Shown one piece after another: positions 4,952-56,314 of a stretch of 64,000 nt of DNA (the stretch's first letter is position 1; the number at the start of each line of letters is the position of its first letter). A program made the position numbers and the translations under genes. The stretch comes from a virus. Location of the stretch: IMG/VR virus record IMGVR_UViG_3300027976_000033; one strand, 5' to 3'. The notes beneath the pieces were generated by a model. The model was not told the DNA's origin and did no database searches. It saw only the letters and a program-made list of their open reading frames with translations.

Positions 4952-5251
4952 ATGATTGAGTATAAAGTTATAGTACATGTTAATGGTGATAAGTATTGGT
5001 ACCTTGATGGTAAGCTCCATCGTGAAGATGGTCCCGCAGTTGAATATGCTAATGGCAACAAGTATTGGCTTCTTAATGGTAAGCAACATCGTGAAGCGGG
5101 ACCAGCAATCGAATATGCCAATGGTTATAAGTATTGGTATCTTAATGGTGTAGAAGTTACTGAAGACAAAGTCATGAATCCTGGCAAAGAACTTACAGTT
5201 GCTGAAATTAGTAAGCTTCTAGGTTATGAAGTAAAAATCATCAAGGGTTAA
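4952..5251 (+). CDS. MORN-variant repeat protein, paralog 1 of 4
   Basis: MIEYKV start as in the other paralogs; three about 23-aa repeats KYWYLNGK-HREDGPA-EYANG; conserved tail VMNPGKELTVAEISKLLGYEVKIIKG. Confidence 0.6.
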   Translation: MIEYKVIVHVNGDKYWYLDGKLHREDGPAVEYANGNKYWLLNGKQHREAGPAIEYANGYKYWYLNGVEVTEDKVMNPGKELTVAEISKLLGYEVKIIKG

Positions 5252-7196: not shown

Positions 7197-7743
7197 TAAG
7201 CCAATAGTTTATATTGATATGGATGGAGTTTTAGCTGATCTTGATGGTGGTGTCTTTGATTGTTTTGGTGAATATCCAAGTGAAATGTCTGCAGAATCAA
7301 GTAAACATTTTTATAGAGAAATCTTACCAGCGTACACCAAGCTTAACATGTTTGAGTTACAGCCAACATTGAAAGAATCTCAAATATTAGTGTTAGCATT
7401 GAATATGCTTAAGAAGGAAGGTAAAGTAAATTTAGCAATATGTACGAGTACTGGACATTTTTACAGACCTTTATCTGAAGTTAGACATCAAAAAAGCAAA
7501 TTTATAGAACAACACTTCACATCATTAAAAGATATTCCATTCATAACAACATCATCTGGTATTGAAAAATCTTTCATGGCACACAAAAGAGCATTTTTGA
7601 TAGATGATCATCACAAAAACATAACCAGATTTATTGAAGCTGGTGGTTCTGGCTATATCTATGATGCTGATGATGCAAAATGTGTAACTAAAACGATTAA
7701 TGCAATAAATTTGTGGTTAGATCGAATATCACTGTATAAATAG
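7189..7743 (+). CDS. 5'(3')-deoxyribonucleotidase (HAD superfamily, NT5C-like)
   Basis: N-terminal IVYIDMDGVLADL is the HAD motif I DxDG(V/T)L of NT5C-type deoxynucleotidases. Confidence 0.65.
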   Translation: MTNKPIVYIDMDGVLADLDGGVFDCFGEYPSEMSAESSKHFYREILPAYTKLNMFELQPTLKESQILVLALNMLKKEGKVNLAICTSTGHFYRPLSEVRHQKSKFIEQHFTSLKDIPFITTSSGIEKSFMAHKRAFLIDDHHKNITRFIEAGGSGYIYDADDAKCVTKTINAINLWLDRISLYK

Positions 7744-7834: not shown

Positions 7835-8317
7835 ATGAATAAGTTAATTTCTCTAATGGCTGCCGCATTACTTTTTGCAGTACCATCAATTGCATCTGCA
7901 AATGAATTTTCTGGTTTTAGAATTGGTGTAACTGCCGGTCTTGATGACGTAACAGTTGCTCCAGATCGTACCGATGTTACATACGGAGCTGAAGTTGGAT
8001 ATGACGTTAACATTAATGATACTCCAGTTTATCTAGGTGTTGAAGCAACACTTGATAATGTGTTTGATAGACGTGATGTAGGTGCATCTGCACGCCTTGG
8101 TGTACAGGTTGCTAGCGATACATTGCTCTATGGTAAAGTTGGATATGCTAACTATAAAGACGTTTTCTCTCGTGAACTTGATGGTCTCCGCGTCGGTGGT
8201 GGTGCTGAACTTCATCTATCCGAAAATGTCTACGGGAAAGTAGAATATCGTTATACCGACTTTCAAGCTGGTGTTGGAAAGCACGGCGGGTTGATTGGTC
8301 TTGGTTATCGCTTTTAA
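7835..8317 (+). CDS. outer-membrane beta-barrel protein (OmpX/Ail/Lom-like) with signal peptide
   Basis: cleavable signal peptide MNKLISLMAAALLFAVPSIASA; alternating amphipathic strands; C-terminal LGYRF aromatic terminus typical of OMP beta-barrels. Confidence 0.55.
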   Translation: MNKLISLMAAALLFAVPSIASANEFSGFRIGVTAGLDDVTVAPDRTDVTYGAEVGYDVNINDTPVYLGVEATLDNVFDRRDVGASARLGVQVASDTLLYGKVGYANYKDVFSRELDGLRVGGGAELHLSENVYGKVEYRYTDFQAGVGKHGGLIGLGYRF

Positions 8318-8376
8318 TTAAGCGTTAAGTTCCTGAGCATGAATTTAAACTGCTTAACTTCACCTTGGTTAACCTT

Positions 8377-8402
8377 AACCCGCCCTGTGCGGGTTATTTT
8401 TT
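8377..8402 (+). terminator. rho-independent terminator
   Basis: acccgccctgtgcgggtt stem-loop followed by T-run. Confidence 0.7.
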
Positions 8403-8462: not shown

Positions 8463-8762
8463 ATGATCGAATATAAAGTAGAAGTCCATGAGAATGGCGA
8501 CAAGCATTGGTACCTTAATGGTAAGAGACATCGTGAAGATGGACCAGCTATCGAATATGCTGATTTGGACAAACATTGGTACCTTAATGGTAAGAAGCAT
8601 CGTGAAGATGGACCAGCAATCGAACTTGCTAGTGGTACAAGGCTATGGTTCCTTAATGGTGTATTAGTTAATGAAGATAAAGTCATGAATCCTGGCAAGG
8701 AACTTACGGTTGCTGAAGTATCAAAGCTTCTAGGTTATGAAGTGAAAATAGTTAAGGGTTAA
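8463..8762 (+). CDS. MORN-variant repeat protein, paralog 2
   Basis: same repeat and C-terminal tail as the 4952 gene. Confidence 0.65.
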   Translation: MIEYKVEVHENGDKHWYLNGKRHREDGPAIEYADLDKHWYLNGKKHREDGPAIELASGTRLWFLNGVLVNEDKVMNPGKELTVAEVSKLLGYEVKIVKG

Positions 8763-8787: not shown

Positions 8788-8815
8788 AAATATATAATAA
8801 ATATGGAGAAACATT

Positions 8816-9130
8816 ATGCAAATCAAAGTTTATCATACCGGTCTCGCAGTTGCATCCATTCAGATTTCACACACAAATGATATCATGGCTGCATTAGAAT
8901 ATGCATTTTTTCGTACTCAGAACATTCATGGTAGTTGGTCCCGCGGAGAATTCTTCGAACTCGGTCAAGAAAATTGCGACTATAGTGCTGATATTAATGT
9001 CTTGGCTCCACTCCATGAAGCCGATGGTCATATTTACGGTCTCAGATCATCGATGGTCGGTGACACGTTTGTCGTAAATGACGAAATGGGATATAGTGTA
9101 GCAAGCATGGGATTTGAGGAAATATTATGA
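8816..9130 (+). CDS. hypothetical protein
   Basis: ORF with GGAGAA RBS. Confidence 0.5.
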   Translation: MQIKVYHTGLAVASIQISHTNDIMAALEYAFFRTQNIHGSWSRGEFFELGQENCDYSADINVLAPLHEADGHIYGLRSSMVGDTFVVNDEMGYSVASMGFEEIL

Positions 9131-10407
9131 AACCGACAATTATCACTTCAGAACCAGTTCATGGTTCACACGCTAGAAAGAATTTGAGCATGGAATATGA
9201 ATTTCCACTAATCATCAATATCAATGATGTGCTTCCAGCAATCGAAGGTCGCGACGAATTTAATGTCTCTGTGAAAGAAGGCTATACAGTCATCAATTAC
9301 AATGTGATGTTTGAAGACACATTCCCACCAATTAAAGTTGCTGGCGGAAGTCCAAAAATGCGTGCCGAAAGAGCTTTGCATAATGCTCTTCGTCGTGAGT
9401 GCCGCGGCATCATTTTTGATACTGTGACTGGTGATATTTTGCGTAGACCATATCACAAATTTTTCAATGTGAATGAACGAGATGAAACTCAAGATCATAT
9501 TGTTGATATGTCTGTCGGACATAGTATTCTTGAAAAGCTCGATGGTTCTATGATTGCTCCATTTATTGTTAATGAAAATATGATTTGGGGCACCAAAATG
9601 GGCGCTACAGATGTCGCAAAACCAGTTGAAGATTTTGTGAAGAACAATCCACATTATGCAGAATTTGCTGAGACATTGATCAAAAAATATGCTCTAACTC
9701 CAATCTTTGAATGGTGCTCTCGTAAACAGCGCATCGTTATTGATCACCCAGAAGATATGCTGATCTTGACTGGAATTAGAAACAGATTCAACGGCGATTA
9801 TGTTCTACATCGTCATCTTCATGAATACGTTCGTGATAAAGATATTCCAATTGTTAAAGCATTTAAACCACAGACTGACATGAAAGAATTCATCAATTAT
9901 GTTGTCGATCTGGAGGAAACTGAGGGCTTTGTAGTTAGATTTAATAGTGGTCATATGGTCAAACTAAAATGTCACTGGTATATCAATCTGCATAAGGCTA
10001 AAGAAGCTATTTTGCAAGATCGCAATATTGTTCAACTTATCATTGATAATTCTTTGGATGATATCAAAGCTCATCTTTCACCTGAAGACCGCGTAAAAAT
10101 TGAACAATTTGAAACCGATTTTAATAATGCGATAATAAAACAGTATAGATATATTATCGCAGTACTCTATAGTAATGCGCAGAAAAAAATAGACAGAAAA
10201 ACTTTTGCATTAAATCATGCTCAAAATGTTGATCGATATGCTCGTGGGATAGTATTCAAAAACTTTGAATATCGACCAGATATAGTAACCCCGAAAATGA
10301 TTCGTGATGATGTTCTTAATACCATTCGCAACAATCTTACGAAAACTGTTAAGTATGAAGAAATTCGAGATGCTTGGTTTTCAGATGTTAAATATAACGC
10401 GGAGTAG
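9127..10407 (+). CDS. rnlA: RNA ligase 1 (T4 gp63/RnlA-like)
   Basis: RECRGIIFD, nucleotidyltransferase motif I KLDGS, EGFVV and WYINLH align along the length of T4 Rnl1; extra about 50-aa N-terminal extension carrying the EPVHGSHAR motif. Confidence 0.9.
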   Translation: MKPTIITSEPVHGSHARKNLSMEYEFPLIININDVLPAIEGRDEFNVSVKEGYTVINYNVMFEDTFPPIKVAGGSPKMRAERALHNALRRECRGIIFDTVTGDILRRPYHKFFNVNERDETQDHIVDMSVGHSILEKLDGSMIAPFIVNENMIWGTKMGATDVAKPVEDFVKNNPHYAEFAETLIKKYALTPIFEWCSRKQRIVIDHPEDMLILTGIRNRFNGDYVLHRHLHEYVRDKDIPIVKAFKPQTDMKEFINYVVDLEETEGFVVRFNSGHMVKLKCHWYINLHKAKEAILQDRNIVQLIIDNSLDDIKAHLSPEDRVKIEQFETDFNNAIIKQYRYIIAVLYSNAQKKIDRKTFALNHAQNVDRYARGIVFKNFEYRPDIVTPKMIRDDVLNTIRNNLTKTVKYEEIRDAWFSDVKYNAE

Positions 10408-10411
10408 ACTA

Positions 10412-10690
10412 ATGGATCATCTGATATTAGTATTGCCTTTAATGTTATTGATATTCGCATTGCTCAGCCAATATAAGTATCTTCAAACGAGGCGAAGAAT
10501 TCGATTTGATGCATATGTTAGGAAGCTCGATTTAGAATTTCATAGGGTCGGTGGTGAGAGTTGGGTTCTTGGACGAGTCGTGAAAACTAATAAGATAAAT
10601 AGCTTGGAATCTATTCACAACTTTGAAAAGACTAAAATTTGGAATTATGATTTTGCATCAATGGTAGTATTGGAGAAAAGAAATGACTGA
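10412..10690 (+). CDS. small membrane protein, hypothetical
   Basis: ATG with GGAG RBS; hydrophobic N-terminus. Confidence 0.4.
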   Translation: MDHLILVLPLMLLIFALLSQYKYLQTRRRIRFDAYVRKLDLEFHRVGGESWVLGRVVKTNKINSLESIHNFEKTKIWNYDFASMVVLEKRND

Positions 10691-11216
10691 CCCTAAACCT
10701 ATATGTTACATCCTGATCGGTCCTCCTGCTGCTGGCAAGTCCACGTGGATTGCAGAAAATTGGATGAATGAATACACACGTCATATCGTTGTCAGTTCTG
10801 ATAATGAAATTGAACGCCATGCCAAAAGTGTTGGCAAGACTTATAATGATGTCTTTGCGTCACATATCAAAAAGGCAACAAAAGTTGCAATGGCTGACGC
10901 ACAAATGGCTGCTGATCAGGGATATAATGTAGTGATTGATAGAACCAATATGACTATTGGAGCTAGGAAAAAGTTCATTGATATCTTTAAAGACACACAT
11001 ATTATTATTGGATATGATTTTGGAACACCAGATAACATTGTTGAACGCTTGCTTTCTAGACCAGGAAAAGATATTCCAATGCACATTGTTCGTAATATGA
11101 TAGAATCATATGAAGCTCCAACATTGGAAGAAGGATTCGATGCTGTTTATGATAACGATAGTGCGATCGATACTTTGAAAATTGTAAATGATTTAAAAAT
11201 ACATGAAGGGAATTAA
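10683..11216 (+). CDS. polynucleotide 5'-kinase (T4 Pnk kinase-domain-like P-loop kinase), no HAD phosphatase domain
   Basis: P-loop GPPAAGKSTW, VVIDRTNMT (T4 VIISDTNLN) and C-terminal RLLSRPGKDIPMHIVRNM (T4 KRNSKRGTKAVPIDVLRSM). Confidence 0.7.
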   Translation: MTDPKPICYILIGPPAAGKSTWIAENWMNEYTRHIVVSSDNEIERHAKSVGKTYNDVFASHIKKATKVAMADAQMAADQGYNVVIDRTNMTIGARKKFIDIFKDTHIIIGYDFGTPDNIVERLLSRPGKDIPMHIVRNMIESYEAPTLEEGFDAVYDNDSAIDTLKIVNDLKIHEGN

Positions 11217-11218
11217 TT

Positions 11219-11587
11219 ATGATCGAATATAAAGTTAGAGTTTATGAGAATGGTACAAAGTATTGGTATCTTAATGGTAAACGTCATCGTGAAGATGGAC
11301 CAGCAATCGAATATGCCGATGGTAACAAGTATTGGTATCTTAATGATAAACTTCATCGTGAAGATGGTCCAGCAGTCGAATATGCCGATGGTAACAAGTT
11401 TTGGTATCTTAATGGTAAGTGTCATCGTGAAGATGGTCCAGCTATGGAATATGCTGATGGTGATAAGTACTGGTACATTAATGATCTGAAAGTTACAGAA
11501 GCTGACGTCATGAATCGTAACAGAGAACTTACAGTTGCTGAAGTATCAAAGTTTCTAGGATACGATGTAAAAATCGTTAAGGGTTGA
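11219..11587 (+). CDS. MORN-variant repeat protein, paralog 3 (four repeats)
   Basis: same repeat and tail. Confidence 0.65.
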   Translation: MIEYKVRVYENGTKYWYLNGKRHREDGPAIEYADGNKYWYLNDKLHREDGPAVEYADGNKFWYLNGKCHREDGPAMEYADGDKYWYINDLKVTEADVMNRNRELTVAEVSKFLGYDVKIVKG

Positions 11588-11613: not shown

Positions 11614-11975
11614 GTCATAACAACAAAGGAATGTTATGATGGTAACTAAAGATGATGCAATGGAATTTATTGTAGAACTTGAAGATATGATGAAAGTTCT
11701 CGAATTGCGCCTTGATGAAAAAGTATCAACTGCAATGTCTGATCGTTATTTTGCTATCAAAAAATATATCCGAAATTCAGAAAACATAATCGTAAAGGCA
11801 AAAACGTGAAATTCAAAATTGTAAACCCAAAACATTCATGGCATTTTGCTTACGCACATCAGACTTTTGAAGTAGCTGAAGGGTATGATCCAGACCACCC
11901 ACAAGTGCCGGCAATGACGTCGTTCGGCCGGACTTGGTTTGATATCGATGTTATAGAATTTATAGAGGACTAAAA

Positions 11976-12632
11976 ATGGGAAAATTTGTAAACAGATTCA
12001 TTATCTCCGATACGCATTTCGGACACACCAATTCTTGGGAAAAGTTCAAGAATGCTGATGGCACACCACTGCGCCCATTTACTTCTACTGAAGAAATGGA
12101 TGAAGCGATGGTTGAACGTTGGAATGCGAAGGTTAAACCTGGAGATACTGTGTATCATCTGGGTGATGTTGTTATCAATGCTAAATCACTGCATCATGTA
12201 TCTAGGCTGAATGGTCGTAAGATTCTGATTCGTGGTAACCATGATATCTTCAAGGATAAACAATACCGTGAAGTTGGCTTTGAACAACTGCATGGTTGCA
12301 GAGTTTTTGTTGATAAATTCATTATGACTCATATTCCACTGCATCCAGATAGTGTAACAGATCGCTTTCGTGTAAATGTCCACGGGCATCTGCATGGCAA
12401 TGAGGTTATGACAAATGGTGTGGTTTTCGATAAGGATGACCAATCTGGAGGTAATCCCTACAAAAAGATTACATATCCTGATCCTCGTTATCTATGTGTA
12501 TCGGTAGAACATACCAACTATGAACCACTGCATTTTGATGAAGTGGAAGCACGAATTCAGCAGCGCTGGAAAACTGTCGGCTATAATCCACCAAGTGGTG
12601 CTGGATGGGGTAATGGAAGCGGAGCTAGTTAA
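11976..12632 (+). CDS. calcineurin-like metallophosphoesterase
   Basis: motifs DTHFGH, GDVV, GNHD, THIPLH, HGHLHG. Confidence 0.75.
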   Translation: MGKFVNRFIISDTHFGHTNSWEKFKNADGTPLRPFTSTEEMDEAMVERWNAKVKPGDTVYHLGDVVINAKSLHHVSRLNGRKILIRGNHDIFKDKQYREVGFEQLHGCRVFVDKFIMTHIPLHPDSVTDRFRVNVHGHLHGNEVMTNGVVFDKDDQSGGNPYKKITYPDPRYLCVSVEHTNYEPLHFDEVEARIQQRWKTVGYNPPSGAGWGNGSGAS

Positions 12633-12928
12633 TGGGACTGGGTATTATGTCTTCTGGTGATAGCTATAGGACTTTTTCACTAAATCCAGATCCATATAAG
12701 TTTCGTATCGTGAAAACATCTAAAATTAATGGTTTGCATATTAGTATGATCAATTACCCAAACTGTACTAACTACGAGGGTAATAAGTTGTTGGTTACCA
12801 CATATGATCCTCGAAATAGACTCTCAATTGATCCACATTTCAGTGGAGACGGTGGACTAGTTGCTAGATTTCAACCAACATTGATTGGGTGGGAAAGTGC
12901 TGTTAGTTTCGTGAAAGGTTTGAAATGA
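12632..12928 (+). CDS. hypothetical protein
   Basis: ORF; start overlaps upstream stop. Confidence 0.45.
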   Translation: MGLGIMSSGDSYRTFSLNPDPYKFRIVKTSKINGLHISMINYPNCTNYEGNKLLVTTYDPRNRLSIDPHFSGDGGLVARFQPTLIGWESAVSFVKGLK

Positions 12929-41401: not shown

Positions 41402-41503
41402 ATGGGATTAAGACTAGAATATTTAACTGATGTAGAAGATGTTTATGACGTAACGGTTGATAAAAATTTAAATTTTTATGCTAATGGTATTTTAGTTCAT
41501 AAT
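41402..41503 (+). other. split-intein C half (IntC, 34 aa) in nrdA
   Basis: blocks F/G, terminal HN, +1 Cys. Confidence 0.8.
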
Positions 41504-42667
41504 TGTCAAGAAATAACATTACCAACTCATCCACTTACTAGCATCCACGATGGAGAACCATCTAAAGAGCCAGTTCAAATTAACTGGAGTGATTGGGACG
41601 CATATGAAGAATTCAAAATATCGAATTCAGATTATGTTTACAAGCGCGGAAAGGGTCAGCACACCGACACATTTGCTTATGAAGTCATAAATTATATCAA
41701 TTTTGATAGCGCTTATAGGTGTGTTTACGAATTAGCTGAGAGTGATTCTAAAGCAGAAATTGCACTATGTACATTGGGAGCAATCAATTGGGGCAAAATT
41801 AAAAAACCTGAAGATTTCATGAAGCCAGCTAGATTGTTGGTTAGAGCTTTAGATGCACTATTAGATTATCAGTCGTATCCAGTTAAAGCTGCTGAAAATG
41901 CAACCATGAATAGAAGGCCACTTGGAATTGGTATCATCAATTTTGCATATTGGATCGCTAAGAATGGTATGACATATAGTGAACCAAATTTAGAGCTCAT
42001 CCACGAATACGCCGAAGCATGGTCATATTATTTGATTAGAGCATCTGTAGAATTAGCAGAAGATTTTGGTCCATGCCCACTATCACACCAGACAAAATAT
42101 GATGACGGTATTATGCCAATTCATACATACAAAGAAGCTGTTGATGAATTAGTAAACCCAGACTATAAATTGGATTGGAATGAACTATCAGAAAGATTGA
42201 AGAAGAGCAAGATTAGAAATTCTACATTAATGGCTCTAATGCCATCAGAAACATCTTCTCAAGTTTCTAATTCTACTAATGGTATTGACCCTATCAGAGA
42301 GATAGTTTCTATTAAACAATCTAAAGATGGTGTACTAGCACAAGTTGCGCCGGAGCCAATTAAATTTAAGAACAAGTATGAAAAGATGTGGGATGCTAAA
42401 ACACCACACGGTTATATAAAAATTATGGCAGTACTTCAAAAGTTCATTGATCAATCTATCTCAACAAATACGACTTATAATCCAGAGCATTATCCAGATG
42501 AGATGCTGTCTGAGGCTGGATTGCTTACAGACATGTTGATGATGTATAAATATGGTATCAAGACAGCATATTATTTTAATACAAATGACGATGCTGGAGA
42601 GATAGAAGTCCCTGATGCCGACGTTGAAGCAATGGAAGATGAAACGTGCGACGCTTGCGCGATATAA
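41402..42667 (+). CDS. nrdA: NrdA C-terminal fragment: IntC (41402-41503) plus C-extein (41504-42667)
   Basis: MGLRLEYLTDVEDVYDVTVDKNLNFYANGILVHN|CQEITLPT; the extein restores the catalytic NLCxEIxLPT motif. Confidence 0.9.
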   Translation: MGLRLEYLTDVEDVYDVTVDKNLNFYANGILVHNCQEITLPTHPLTSIHDGEPSKEPVQINWSDWDAYEEFKISNSDYVYKRGKGQHTDTFAYEVINYINFDSAYRCVYELAESDSKAEIALCTLGAINWGKIKKPEDFMKPARLLVRALDALLDYQSYPVKAAENATMNRRPLGIGIINFAYWIAKNGMTYSEPNLELIHEYAEAWSYYLIRASVELAEDFGPCPLSHQTKYDDGIMPIHTYKEAVDELVNPDYKLDWNELSERLKKSKIRNSTLMALMPSETSSQVSNSTNGIDPIREIVSIKQSKDGVLAQVAPEPIKFKNKYEKMWDAKTPHGYIKIMAVLQKFIDQSISTNTTYNPEHYPDEMLSEAGLLTDMLMMYKYGIKTAYYFNTNDDAGEIEVPDADVEAMEDETCDACAI

Positions 42668-53680: not shown

Positions 53681-54049
53681 ATGATCGAATATAAAGTTGA
53701 AGTTTATCCTAATGGTACCAAGTATTGGTTCCTTAATGGGAAATATCATCGCGAAGATGGTCCAGCTATCGAATGGTCTAATGGTAACAAATATTGGTAC
53801 ATTAATGATGTACTCCATCGTGAAGATGGCCCAGCAATCGAATATGCCAATGGTGGCAAGGTTTGGTACCTTGATGGTAAGCCCCATCGTGAAGATGGAC
53901 CAGCTGTCGAATATGCCGATGGTGATAAGTATTGGTACCTTAATGGTGTATTAGTTACCGAAGACGAAGTAATGAATCCTGGCAAAGAACTTACTGTTGC
54001 TGAAATTAGTAAGCTTCTTGGATACGATGTAAAAATCATCAAGGGTTGA
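53681..54049 (+). CDS. MORN-variant repeat protein, paralog 4 (four repeats)
   Basis: same repeat and tail. Confidence 0.65.
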   Translation: MIEYKVEVYPNGTKYWFLNGKYHREDGPAIEWSNGNKYWYINDVLHREDGPAIEYANGGKVWYLDGKPHREDGPAVEYADGDKYWYLNGVLVTEDEVMNPGKELTVAEISKLLGYDVKIIKG

Positions 54050-54105: not shown

Positions 54106-55074
54106 ATGTCTCATGAACTTGAAATGGTTGGTAAAGATGCTCAAATGGCTTACGTCGGCGACGTTCCATGGCACGGTCTTGGTGTAAAAGTCCCCGCCGA
54201 TCTCACTCCACAACAAATGGCAAAATCTGCCGGCGTCGATTGGAATGTTGAAACCATTCCAGCACACGTCGAAATCAACGGCAAACAAGTTGAAATTGGA
54301 AAATCTGCACTAGTGCGAAGCACTGACAAGAAAATTTTGGATGTTATCAGTAATGACTGGAACCCATGTCAGAACGTTGACGCCTTCGAATTCTTCAATG
54401 ACTTTATTTCGGCTGGCGATATGGAAATGCATACGGCTGGATCGCTCAAAGATGGCAAAATCGTCTGGGCGCTCGCAAAGGTGAAGGATTCTTCATTCGA
54501 ACTATTTAACGGTAAAGACCGAGTAGATTCTTATCTCCACTTTACCAATCCACATCAATATGGACAATCAATCGATGTCCGCTTCACACCAATTCGAGTG
54601 GTATGTAATAACACACTTTCGCTCTCGCTTGGTATGAAATCAAAAAATATGGTGAAGATTTCCCATCGCGCACAATTTAATGCAGATGAAGTCAAGTTGG
54701 CTCTCGGTGTTGCAGCTGATAAGTTGAAAACTTACAAAGAGTCTGCAATGTTTCTCAGTGAAAAGCGATACACAAACGAAAGCATGGAAAACTATTTCAA
54801 ACGCGTTTTCCCTTATATGTCATCTGATCCAAAGAAAGCAACTGAACTTTCTCGCAATGCAAAGCTTGCTTCTGAAGATTATTTGACCGGTCAGGCCGGC
54901 GCAGAACTTGGTGAAGGCACATACTGGCAGCTGTTCAATACCGTAACCTATATGACAGATCATGTAATGGGCCGTACCGCCGACAATCGGCTATCTTCAG
55001 CTTGGTATGGTAGTAACCGCAATCTCAAAGTAAGAGCGCTAGAAACCGCCCTTGAAATGGCAAACGAAGCTTAA
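54106..55074 (+). CDS. phage/plasmid-like protein (DUF932/TIGR03299-like), putative
   Basis: size and sequence pattern reminiscent of the DUF932 family; weak. Confidence 0.4.
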   Translation: MSHELEMVGKDAQMAYVGDVPWHGLGVKVPADLTPQQMAKSAGVDWNVETIPAHVEINGKQVEIGKSALVRSTDKKILDVISNDWNPCQNVDAFEFFNDFISAGDMEMHTAGSLKDGKIVWALAKVKDSSFELFNGKDRVDSYLHFTNPHQYGQSIDVRFTPIRVVCNNTLSLSLGMKSKNMVKISHRAQFNADEVKLALGVAADKLKTYKESAMFLSEKRYTNESMENYFKRVFPYMSSDPKKATELSRNAKLASEDYLTGQAGAELGEGTYWQLFNTVTYMTDHVMGRTADNRLSSAWYGSNRNLKVRALETALEMANEA

Positions 55075-55114: not shown

Positions 55115-56311
55115 ATGTTGTACTTTTATAATGATGGTGAAATTGATATCAACGGAGCCACAATAGCTGGATTATCTGCTAAAGATAATAATAAACCTAT
55201 TGGCTTCTTCGGCACTGGATTGAAATATGCTATTGCATGCATTCTTCGATGGGATGGAGAAATCAGTATTTGGTCTGGCAAAACAAAATACATTTTTAGT
55301 CTAAATGAGCTGATGTTTCGTGGAGCATCATTCAAACAAATAGTTATGACTAACAGATCAACTGGTAAAGTGAGTGAACTTGGATTCACTACAGAGTATG
55401 GTAAAAATTGGAAACCGTGGCAAGTGTTTAGAGAGCTATACAGCAACGCTATAGATGAAAATGGTGATGTAACCCAGTATGATTCTAAAGATCTCCATGG
55501 TGGTGGTAAAACTGTAATAGAAGTATCTTCTGAGGAATTGCATGACATATATCCGAAACGCGATTCTATTATTCTACCAAAAACCTTCGGCCCAAAAATA
55601 GAAACAAAATATGGGTACATATATAACACTCCAAATAATAGTGTTTATTACCGAGGAGTGCGAGTGGCTGAGGCTGAAAGCAAATATACGTACAATATCA
55701 CAGACACATTGGATCTTACTGAAGATAGAACAGTAGATACATATTACATGCGGCGTGCAGCTGGCAGATTAGTTATAAATTGTAAGTCTCGAGACATTAT
55801 CTATGATATTATAACAGCCAAAGATGGTCTTGAAAGCGATCTCTATTATACGGCTTACTCAGAACATACACCAGAATTCATGGATGCATGCCGTCAAATT
55901 CACTTAGAGACACCAAACAAATATGCGACAGTGACTGAATTTTTGAAGCGATATGATAAAACATTCAAAGAAAACACTGAAGTCACAATATCTACTATTC
56001 AAAAATCTATGATGGATAAGGCCATACGAGTTTGTTGCGCCATGTTTAATATCAATGATAGCGAATTGCCAAATATAAAATATGGCAATCTTGGTCGCGA
56101 AACTCTTGGATTGTATGATCCAAAGTGTAGAGAAATTTGGATCGATGTTAAGTGTTTCAACAGTGGAACGAAGTTTGTTACATCAACACTCTATGAAGAA
56201 ATAACACATTGGCTCACCGGTCACACTGATTGTAATTATACCATGCAGACTTATCTTTTTGATAAAATTATTACACTATATGAAGAGCATGTGCTAAAAG
56301 AACCAATATAA
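55115..56311 (+). CDS. hypothetical protein
   Basis: RBS GGAGAA. Confidence 0.5.
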   Translation: MLYFYNDGEIDINGATIAGLSAKDNNKPIGFFGTGLKYAIACILRWDGEISIWSGKTKYIFSLNELMFRGASFKQIVMTNRSTGKVSELGFTTEYGKNWKPWQVFRELYSNAIDENGDVTQYDSKDLHGGGKTVIEVSSEELHDIYPKRDSIILPKTFGPKIETKYGYIYNTPNNSVYYRGVRVAEAESKYTYNITDTLDLTEDRTVDTYYMRRAAGRLVINCKSRDIIYDIITAKDGLESDLYYTAYSEHTPEFMDACRQIHLETPNKYATVTEFLKRYDKTFKENTEVTISTIQKSMMDKAIRVCCAMFNINDSELPNIKYGNLGRETLGLYDPKCREIWIDVKCFNSGTKFVTSTLYEEITHWLTGHTDCNYTMQTYLFDKIITLYEEHVLKEPI

Positions 56312-56314
56312 ATA
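56307..56314 (+). promoter_or_regulatory. late promoter octamer TATAAATA
   Basis: exact octamer 6 nt before ATG 56320. Confidence 0.35.

Follow-up and report, generated by a model that had tools for sequence, protein, structure and literature searches.

A short peptide common to dissimilar viral proteins was analysed in a 64,000-nucleotide (nt) stretch of IMG/VR virus record IMGVR_UViG_3300027976_000033 (36% GC), referred to below as the window. Six-frame translation of the window contains three proteins with PVHG[S/K]HA[K/R] near the N-terminus, namely a T4 Rnl1-type RNA ligase and two ADP-ribosyltransferases (ARTs), ART1 and ART2. With high confidence, this peptide, called the tag here, is a real portable module. 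It appears to be a new, apparently unreported portable N-terminal peptide module, and it is neither a cleavage site nor a capsid-targeting sequence (CTS) of the T4 type. The reading ranked first, which is tentative and seen as possible rather than probable, is that of a portable docking peptide with the ART catalytic domain as its receptor, acting as a latch in cis and as a recruiter in trans. The three genes and their tags are listed below; loci outside the window are given L numbers and proteins P numbers.

9127..10407, + strand: T4 Rnl1-type RNA ligase open reading frame (ORF), 426 amino acids (aa), tag at the extreme N-terminus (Pfam RNA_lig_T4_1 2.9e-28, T4_Rnl1_C)
9130..9177, + strand: tag on the ligase, KPTIITSEPVHGSHAR, residues 2-17, starting directly after Met1
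58359..59336, - strand: ART1, C3/Certhrax-fold ADP-ribosyltransferase, 325 aa (Pfam ADPrib_exo_Tox 5.9e-14; PHROG Alt-like)
59253..59300, - strand: tag on ART1, KPILIDAEPVHGSHAK
57659..58372, - strand (longest ORF to 58402): ART2, paralogue of ART1, probable start MMISK at 58372 (Pfam ADPrib_exo_Tox 2.4e-13)
58262..58309, - strand: tag on ART2, KAITITAIPVHGKHAK

The first-pass annotation had described a leader common to the ligase and the two ARTs, and all three sequences were found as described: the N-terminus is MKPTIITSEPVHGSHARK in the ligase (ORF 9127..10407, + strand) and MQKFKFFIKKKIKPILIDAEPVHGSHAKHD in ART1 (58359..59336, - strand), and the ART2 frame (57659..58402, - strand) includes KKTKAITITAIPVHGKHAKG. 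Its phrase 'otherwise unrelated' holds for the ligase with respect to the ARTs but not for ART1 and ART2, which are paralogues. The pattern P.HG.H[AS] occurs three times in the six frames, versus 0.018 expected, and in all three cases the ORF is long and the match close to its N-terminus; 200 shuffles of the window yielded 0.005 on average and never more than 1. PVHG itself is present exactly three times in these frames. In an alignment anchored on PVHG, the common unit spans about 16 residues, K-P-Φ-Φ-I-x-[A/V]-x-P-V-H-G-x-H-[A/S]-[K/R/Q] (Φ, hydrophobic), with KKIKPILIDAEPVHGSHAKH as an example. The motif had thus been drawn too short, as the unit opens with K-P-x-Φ-I about 8 residues ahead of PVHG, and the basic stretch said to precede it is missing from the ligase, where the tag begins at residue 2.

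At the nucleotide level, the ligase and ART1 cores are identical in 25 of 27 nt (GAACCWGTTCATGGTTCACACGCTARA), in agreement with the near-identity reported for these two leaders. The ART2 tag differs from both in its synonymous codons, and a strict nucleotide-level constraint is therefore absent. For the ligase, ART1 and ART2, the residue preceding P-x-H-G reads E/E/I in the window. The L003+L008 phage (syntenic contigs from one sample) has Q/Q/Q at this place, L002 and L009 have T/T/T, and D is seen elsewhere. Cleavage at IxxE↓P, as originally suggested, does not fit: the Glu before Pro is not kept (E, Q, T, D or I), and the hydrophobic residue is at P4, not P3.

A tag profile of 29 positions was searched against 1.84 billion representatives, one per 50%-identity cluster. 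At E<=1e-3, 36 proteins were retrieved, their best matches all lying within the first ~60 residues and many having two or three matched stretches. This catalogue of tagged proteins is a lower bound, because 50%-cluster representatives hide tagged variants of mostly untagged families such as the ligase. The majority of the matches are ARTs of 250-320 aa with one to three tandem tags. Besides these, six unrelated proteins of 58-87 aa (P0142, P0145, P0150, P0154, P0156 and P0159) have one tag at the extreme N-terminus and no Pfam match, and P0135 consists of two tags and little else; P0144 was discarded as a false positive. The tag starts 2-10 residues after Met in the non-ART cargo and at residue 13 or later in the ARTs. 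Across 66 instances in 41 proteins, the consensus reads K-P(56/66)-I-L-I(55/66)-[T/D/P]-[A/V]-x-P(65/66)-V-H-G-x-H-[S/A]-[K/R/Q]. Tag similarity is 0.65 within one genome or protein versus 0.48 between genomes, and this greater likeness, together with a pre-Pro residue that co-varies despite synonymous divergence, indicates one co-evolving partner. No paper containing the tag motif was found, and no Pfam, NCBIfam or PHROG model covers it. An aminoacyl-tRNA-synthetase class I HIGH-type/HxGH nucleotidyltransferase motif was rejected, as the spacing is H-G-x-H, not H-x-G-H, and 16 residues cannot form such a site.

Further ARTs, from IMG/VR and from JGI metagenomes, and one new protein of 52 aa came from scans with back-translated DNA patterns; the back-translated EPVHGxHA[KR] scan of IMG/VR gave a single match, which was out-of-frame noise. 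The 52-aa family (P0162-P0167, 52-57 aa) consists of MAKKDEGIPPIIIPVAPVHGGHASRSRE followed by a short variable charged tail, with a good Shine-Dalgarno sequence and an invariant tag part, and is encoded in a conjugative element of 61% GC, beside ArdC, TrwC and TrwB. It scores 26.5-26.9 bits against the profile, compared with 2.7-14.5 for noise matches to the same DNA pattern and 34.8-41.2 for the tags of the phage small proteins. A tblastn search of PLSDB with the 52-aa protein returned no match. Genes of the family are located at ~9885-10059 (- strand) of L055 and in L131, with about 300 nt of nearly invariant non-coding DNA upstream. Among the small proteins, the 72-aa P0150 is encoded in L015 (8505-11176), where its gene has on one side a TnpB (OrfB_IS605) gene with a tRNA and on the other a split gene resembling one for a release factor. 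This contig also encodes an NAD-dependent ligase, which is its only PHROG match, GyrB and GyrA.

The ARTs have a C3/Alt-type fold with STS and ExE motifs, and S209, E275 and E277 are invariant in 29 ARTs. The AlphaFold2 (AF2) model of ART1 has a predicted local distance difference test score (pLDDT) of 82.5 and matches Certhrax/C3 in Foldseek at E 8e-10, as well as Vip2. Only six homologues of ART1 were present in a collection of 5.8 billion proteins, all with a diverged leader and two with tandem duplicates. The ART2 ATG overlaps the ART1 stop and has a GAAGGA ribosome-binding site ahead of it. In all ARTs, the leader is composed of a CTS-like N-terminus (element a), one to three tags (element b) and an [L/I/V]xE site (element c). 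Elements (a) and (c) are positioned as follows in the window.

59307..59336, - strand: element (a) of ART1, MQKFKFFIKK (F4, F7, I8), CTS-like consensus M-x-x-F4-K-x-F7-Φ-K-K
58313..58336, - strand: element (a)-like segment of ART2, RFKALVKK (RFKEIIKN and RFKEEVKK in L002 and L003)
59214..59222, - strand: putative gp21-type site IKE↓A of ART1; its E41 is invariant in 29 ARTs
58241..58249, - strand: putative processing-type site IKE↓S after the ART2 tag

The CTS of T4 is MKTYQEFIAE (PMC8442874). Targeting is governed mainly by residues 4 and 7 and processing by residues 8 and 10, with an Asp at position 10 stopping processing and leaving targeting unaffected (PMC9026906). The T4 protease gp21 recognises (L/I)xE and cleaves behind the Glu; its sites in Alt are ITE-6 and LTE-619 (PMC5694885). 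Element (a) is comparable, being N-terminal with a hydrophobic or aromatic residue at positions 4 and 7; among the 29 ARTs, conservation of F4 is at least 90% and F7 is frequent, and residues 4-9 form a helix in the AF2 model. In ART2 this element sits 9-13 residues in from the start. The tag consensus K-P-I-L-I-x-A-x-P-V-H-G-x-H-A-K is unlike MKTYQEFIAE and has no (L/I)xE end. The idea that PVHG is itself a capsid-targeting sequence was therefore abandoned, also because a neighbouring gene (56508..57203) has a CTS-like start and no tag.

An [LIV]xE site is found 2-16 residues past the last tag in every ART, where the background is one per 97 residues; P0002 and P0004 have no other such site in the whole protein. 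The Glu of the site (E41) and the tag residues G24 and H26 are invariant in the 29 ARTs, whose mutual identity, apart from P0001, is only 29-41%. In the AF2 model of ART1, made from a 29-sequence alignment with the tag in every row, residues 11-20 reach a mean pLDDT of 92 with a beta-bridge at I15-L16, PVHGSHAKHD has 63, and the linker 31-44 with the cleavage site falls below 50. An accessible (L/I/V)xE site of the gp21 type is thus predicted for the ARTs from sequence and linker pLDDT, and is missing from the ligase. The predicted picture looks like a pro-segment docked on a C3/Certhrax-type domain with an exposed scissile linker.

Late-type promoter boxes accompany the ART genes, as follows.

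59358..59372, - strand: CATAAATAATAAATA, two overlapping T4-late-type boxes, 29-36 nt upstream of the ART1 ATG

The T4-late-type box NATAAATA is located 25-42 nt upstream in six of seven ART1 loci, with ~0.005 expected per locus. Across the whole window, TATAAATA is not enriched (10 sites versus 9.3 expected), and only the positional association of late-type boxes with ART genes is significant. In T4, alt is a late gene whose product is present in the virion (PMC9697503). Because of the CTS-like helix, the invariant ΦxE site and these boxes, the ARTs are, by analogy with T4, fairly likely to resemble Alt in being processed in the prohead and packaged. The packaging and processing role proposed at first thus stands in part: the ARTs look Alt-type with a prohead pro-region, through elements other than those named, and packaging of the ligase is unsupported.

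As to the catalytic domain, the position of the canonical NAD-binding Arg of R-S-E ARTs is, in an alignment reading, apparently His (HVYHG), and Ser in P0005 and P0006. The ARTs are unusually His-rich and have a conserved W..N.N.HLG motif directly after the predicted mature N-terminus.

The ligase has the nucleotidyltransferase domain with KxDG (K137-L-D-G, at K137) and the Rnl1 C-terminal domain of the T4 RnlA (Rnl1) family, with Pfam scores of 99.7 bits (cut-off 28.3) and 28.8 bits (cut-off 27). Its NCBIfam equivalog score of 139 is below the cut-off of 242, and it is therefore a family member, not an equivalog. Mean pLDDT of the AF2 ligase model is 79, and residues 9-20 are below 50 (tag disordered); as the tag is in only 4 of the 36 alignment rows, this model is no fair control for the ART1 tag model. 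In tblastn against cultured phages, the alignments begin only at residue 17-26. Among the 120 closest ligases from 5.8 billion proteins (57-100% identity to the query), the tag is present in four, while the leader is missing in the other 116, nearly all of which open at MNYEFP. The tagged ones are P0007 (identical to the window protein), P0012, P0015 and P0029, with leaders MDPIVITATPTHGAHAR and MDPIVIKAQPSHGAHAQ, and tagged relatives only 57-61% identical to the query retain P-x-H-G-x-H-A. Two features lie directly upstream.

8816..9130, + strand: ORF of 104 aa (ORF104) upstream of the ligase, its stop overlapping the ligase ATG (ATGA)
8793..8803, + strand: TATAATAAATA, a sigma-70-like -10 hexamer overlapping a late-type AATAAATA box (consensus match only), just upstream of the ORF104-ligase pair

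The ATGA overlap indicates translational coupling, and the ORF104-ligase arrangement is kept in L010-L014. No [LIV]xE occurs within 30 residues of the ligase tag. Having neither a CTS-like helix nor a ΦxE site, the ligase is, from its sequence, probably not a processed head protein. The earlier view of a packaged ligase loses further ground with the L009 relative, whose ligase gene is preceded by a terminator and a sigma-70-type promoter, TTGACA-N17-TATAAG. The 110 nt ahead of each tagged ligase or small-protein gene contain no late box, and the predicted timing of these genes is early-type or ambiguous. Read-through into the ligase from a TATAAATA box at 7735 was ruled out by the strong terminator 8376-8396. 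This box (7735-7742) and terminator belong to a gene at 7835-8317 for an outer-membrane beta-barrel protein with signal peptide, homologues of which (Pfam OMP_b-brl) are also present in L002, L008 and L020. Two genes downstream of the ligase, 10683..11216 encodes an untagged AAA_33/polynucleotide-kinase-like protein, making up a T4-style RNA-repair pair.

The clade that bears the tag is uncultured, with no near match to the window DNA and no ART1 homologue among cultured phages. The window encodes a clamp loader, DNA polymerase, UvsX-like recombinase, primase and helicase, but has no head module and no prohead protease gene. In L004, genes for sheath, tube, Portal_T4, Peptidase_S77 (gp21-type), T4_CASP scaffold and Gp23 stand directly upstream of the ART pair; its capsid protein has LFE↓D in place of the LTE↓A of T4 gp23, and the tag motif is in none of its head proteins. 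Further T4-like genes are gp32, gp59 and the late-transcription coactivator in L019, and td, frd, nrdA/B and RNase H in L018. The gene with the CTS-like start is accompanied by a late-type box.

56508..57203, + strand: 231-aa neighbour of the ART pair, CTS-like start MVKSFKTFTEE (56508..56540), no tag
56307..56314, + strand: TATAAATA box, 13 nt upstream of ORF 56320, which is in an operon with 56508

The 231-aa neighbour is kept beside the ART pair in L002, L005, L006 and L019, and in L019 TATAAATA is at -30 of the gene orthologous to ORF 56320. It has no Pfam, PHROG or NCBIfam match, only sub-threshold matches to the VRK1 catalytic loop (E ~0.5), and a motif HDNxxxN...IDHGG; it may be a packaged kinase-like effector. 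A DUF932 gene at 54106-55074 and a 398-aa ORF at 55115-56311 (PHROG 8203) are syntenic with the ART cluster in L002, L003 and L006; the DUF932 family is common in plasmids. In L004, an ADP-ribosylglycohydrolase gene (11754-12641, - strand; 52% GC relative) is convergent with the ART pair and overlaps its end, a possible eraser for the ARTs. Elsewhere in the window, four paralogous small ORFs (4952-5251, 8463-8762, 11219-11587 and 53681-54049) start with MIEYKV and have YWYLNGKxHREDGPA (MORN-like) repeats. They are dispersed over regions of early-type genes; one directly precedes the ligase block and another directly follows the kinase gene. The ORF fragments 1626-2363 and 41402-42667 run into ...VVHNC and ...LVHNC, which may be intein C-terminal splice junctions within replication or ribonucleotide-reductase genes.

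With the ART domain as receptor, the pro-region would be read in the order T4-CTS-like amphipathic helix, tag or tags, and exposed linker ending at the ΦxE site. Given the T4 precedent, pro-ARTs would be loaded into the prohead, trimmed at ΦxE with loss of helix and tag, and injected. In cis, the tag would latch onto the pro-enzyme until the protease removes it, as in a zymogen. In trans, early-type proteins with only the tag (the ligase and the small proteins) would be brought to the injected ART in its mature, tag-free form, serving it as substrates, partners or inhibitors, and the tag-only mini-proteins would serve as competitors or decoys; this trans step is suggested by one structure prediction and the distribution patterns. 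In favour is first of all the AF2 model, in which tag residues 11-20 are confidently placed with a beta-bridge, as opposed to the linker at the site. Furthermore, every ART of the family has at least one tag and the CTS-like 231-aa neighbour has none, the pre-Pro residue co-varies across ligase, ART1 and ART2, and tags are more alike within a genome. The non-ART tagged genes lack the helix (element a), have [LIV]xE within 20 residues of the tag in only two of nine cases, and are in early-type operons. Docking on the ART domain is the sole reading with direct, though only predicted, structural support and covers more of the observations than the others.

Several results count against an ART receptor. 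The cis docking comes from one AF2 model of 29 sequences, in which the most conserved part of the tag, PVHGSHAKHD, has the lower pLDDT given above, and the tag is disordered in the ligase model, although the few tagged rows there make this an unfair control. No ART was seen in the examined parts of L015, L018 and L020, which hold tagged non-ART proteins, and none was detected near the 52-aa family in the conjugative element. The tag is better conserved than the ART domain supposed to bind it, and the head module and protease are seen only in the more distant L004.

A docking peptide for the prohead core or capsid interior, i.e. a second kind of CTS, comes next, and is considered rather doubtful. 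It is an amended form of the idea in the first-pass annotation and would load ARTs, ligase and small cargo resembling internal proteins, with tandem copies giving avidity for the scaffold lattice; the ARTs would be freed at ΦxE and the ligase would stay tagged. In the ARTs, the tag lies within the segment removed at the invariant ΦxE and must consequently act before or during head maturation, and in T4 the affinity of head proteins for the core comes from their propeptides (PMC9026906). The one to three tandem copies, the modular spread over unrelated proteins, including those of 58-87 aa with the size of T4 internal proteins, the within-genome co-variation, which suits a phage-encoded receptor, and the T4-like clade with its gp21-type protease all agree with prohead docking. 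However, the ARTs already have a CTS-like helix, and the 231-aa neighbour has one without the tag. The non-ART cargo comes without this helix, mostly without a processing site, and from early-type operons, while the tag-only mini-proteins (P0135 and the 52-aa family) have no cargo to deliver. A conjugative element, in which a tag-like peptide is nevertheless found, has no capsid. Finally, the polynucleotide-kinase-like partner of the ligase (10683..11216) is untagged, and so are the head proteins of L004.

Binding of the tag to a conserved bacterial factor, for instance as an N-terminal degron or docking site for an AAA+ protease or chaperone, is an unlikely explanation. In that case, early proteins would have short lifetimes or be recruited to the factor, pro-ARTs left unpackaged would be removed while processed ones would be stable, and tag-only proteins would inhibit the factor competitively. 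This matches the strictly N-terminal position of the tag in all classes, the near-invariance of P-x-H-G-x-H-[A/S] across elements of 34 to 61% GC, the non-T4-like context of P0150, and the 52-aa family beside ArdC, TrwC and TrwB, in which the tag part is invariant and the tail variable. It leaves unexplained, however, why every family ART is tagged and the CTS-like neighbour is not, as well as the cis docking predicted by AF2. The peptide of the conjugative element scores lower than the phage tags (26.5-26.9 versus 34.8-41.2 bits) and could be convergent. It also counts against a host factor that the tag is not known to resemble any degron or chaperone motif.

It is highly improbable that the similarity is merely a by-product of recent recombination within the genome, or a signal in the DNA or RNA (translation or regulatory element), and has no role in the proteins: the 25 of 27 nt shared by the ligase and ART1 cores would suit it, but ART2 and the tags of other genomes keep the peptide with different synonymous codons, by which a nucleotide-level element is ruled out, the amino-acid pattern is kept in 66 instances in 41 proteins, and the tag is retained in ligases 57-61% identical to the query.

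Compared with known systems, the ART leaders are closest to the T4 CTS and gp21 pathway, in which likewise a short N-terminal peptide is placed on unrelated proteins, as part of a propeptide that gp21 takes off after (L/I)xE; they have both a CTS look-alike, MxxF4KxF7ΦKK, and a ΦxE site. The PVHG tag differs by having no resemblance to the CTS and being separate from the CTS-like helix, can be tandem, is present without a cleavage site on the ligase and small proteins, and also occurs outside phages. Like T4 Alt, the ARTs combine an ART fold, a late-type promoter and an N-terminal pro-segment ending in ΦxE in a T4-like genome. T4 Alt is 682 aa long, whereas the ARTs here have 237-325 aa and match it in the catalytic domain alone (PHROG 802, positions 321-591 of 674). 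In addition, the Alt N-terminal propeptide has 6 residues (ITE-6) and no tag, and the Arg of R-S-E is apparently His or Ser in the ARTs described here. Encapsulin cargo-loading peptides offer a functional analogy only: these are also short conserved terminal peptides, sometimes in multiple copies, that direct unrelated enzymes to one HK97-fold shell. They are of the GSLxIGSLK type, to which the tag shows no sequence resemblance, are mostly C-terminal and not proteolytically removed, and have the shell as receptor. The zymogen pro-segments of secreted toxins and proteases share with the ART leaders a layout in which an N-terminal segment is predicted to pack against the catalytic domain and a protease site sits in the exposed linker behind it. 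Unlike the tag, which is also found on unrelated proteins and alone, classical pro-segments are tied to one enzyme family.

The T4 CTS is the classic case of a short peptide routing unrelated proteins to one place, and has been used to engineer protein-loaded phage particles. In the same group of viruses, the tag adds another portable peptide, unrelated to the CTS and apparently unreported, with clear sequence rules, tandem copies and a defined cargo of Alt-like ARTs, a tRNA-repair-type ligase and small orphan proteins. The role of the propeptides flanking Alt (targeting, tethering or activity control) has been posed as a question in the T4 literature (PMC5694885), and the far more elaborate and strongly conserved pro-region of the present ARTs makes it directly testable. 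A prohead receptor would make the tag a new tool for filling capsids with proteins; an ART-domain or host-factor receptor would make it a new motif for recruitment or inhibition in the biology of mobile elements. More speculatively, and with no great likelihood attached to the whole, a 16-residue address peptide may have spread horizontally among T4-like phages and at least one conjugative element, addressing one receptor, most interestingly the domain of the injected ART, and so linking pro-ART latency, the marking of early proteins and mini-protein decoys. If so, one and the same peptide would keep the pro-ART latent in the producing cell and then mark phage early proteins for ART docking or modification in the next.

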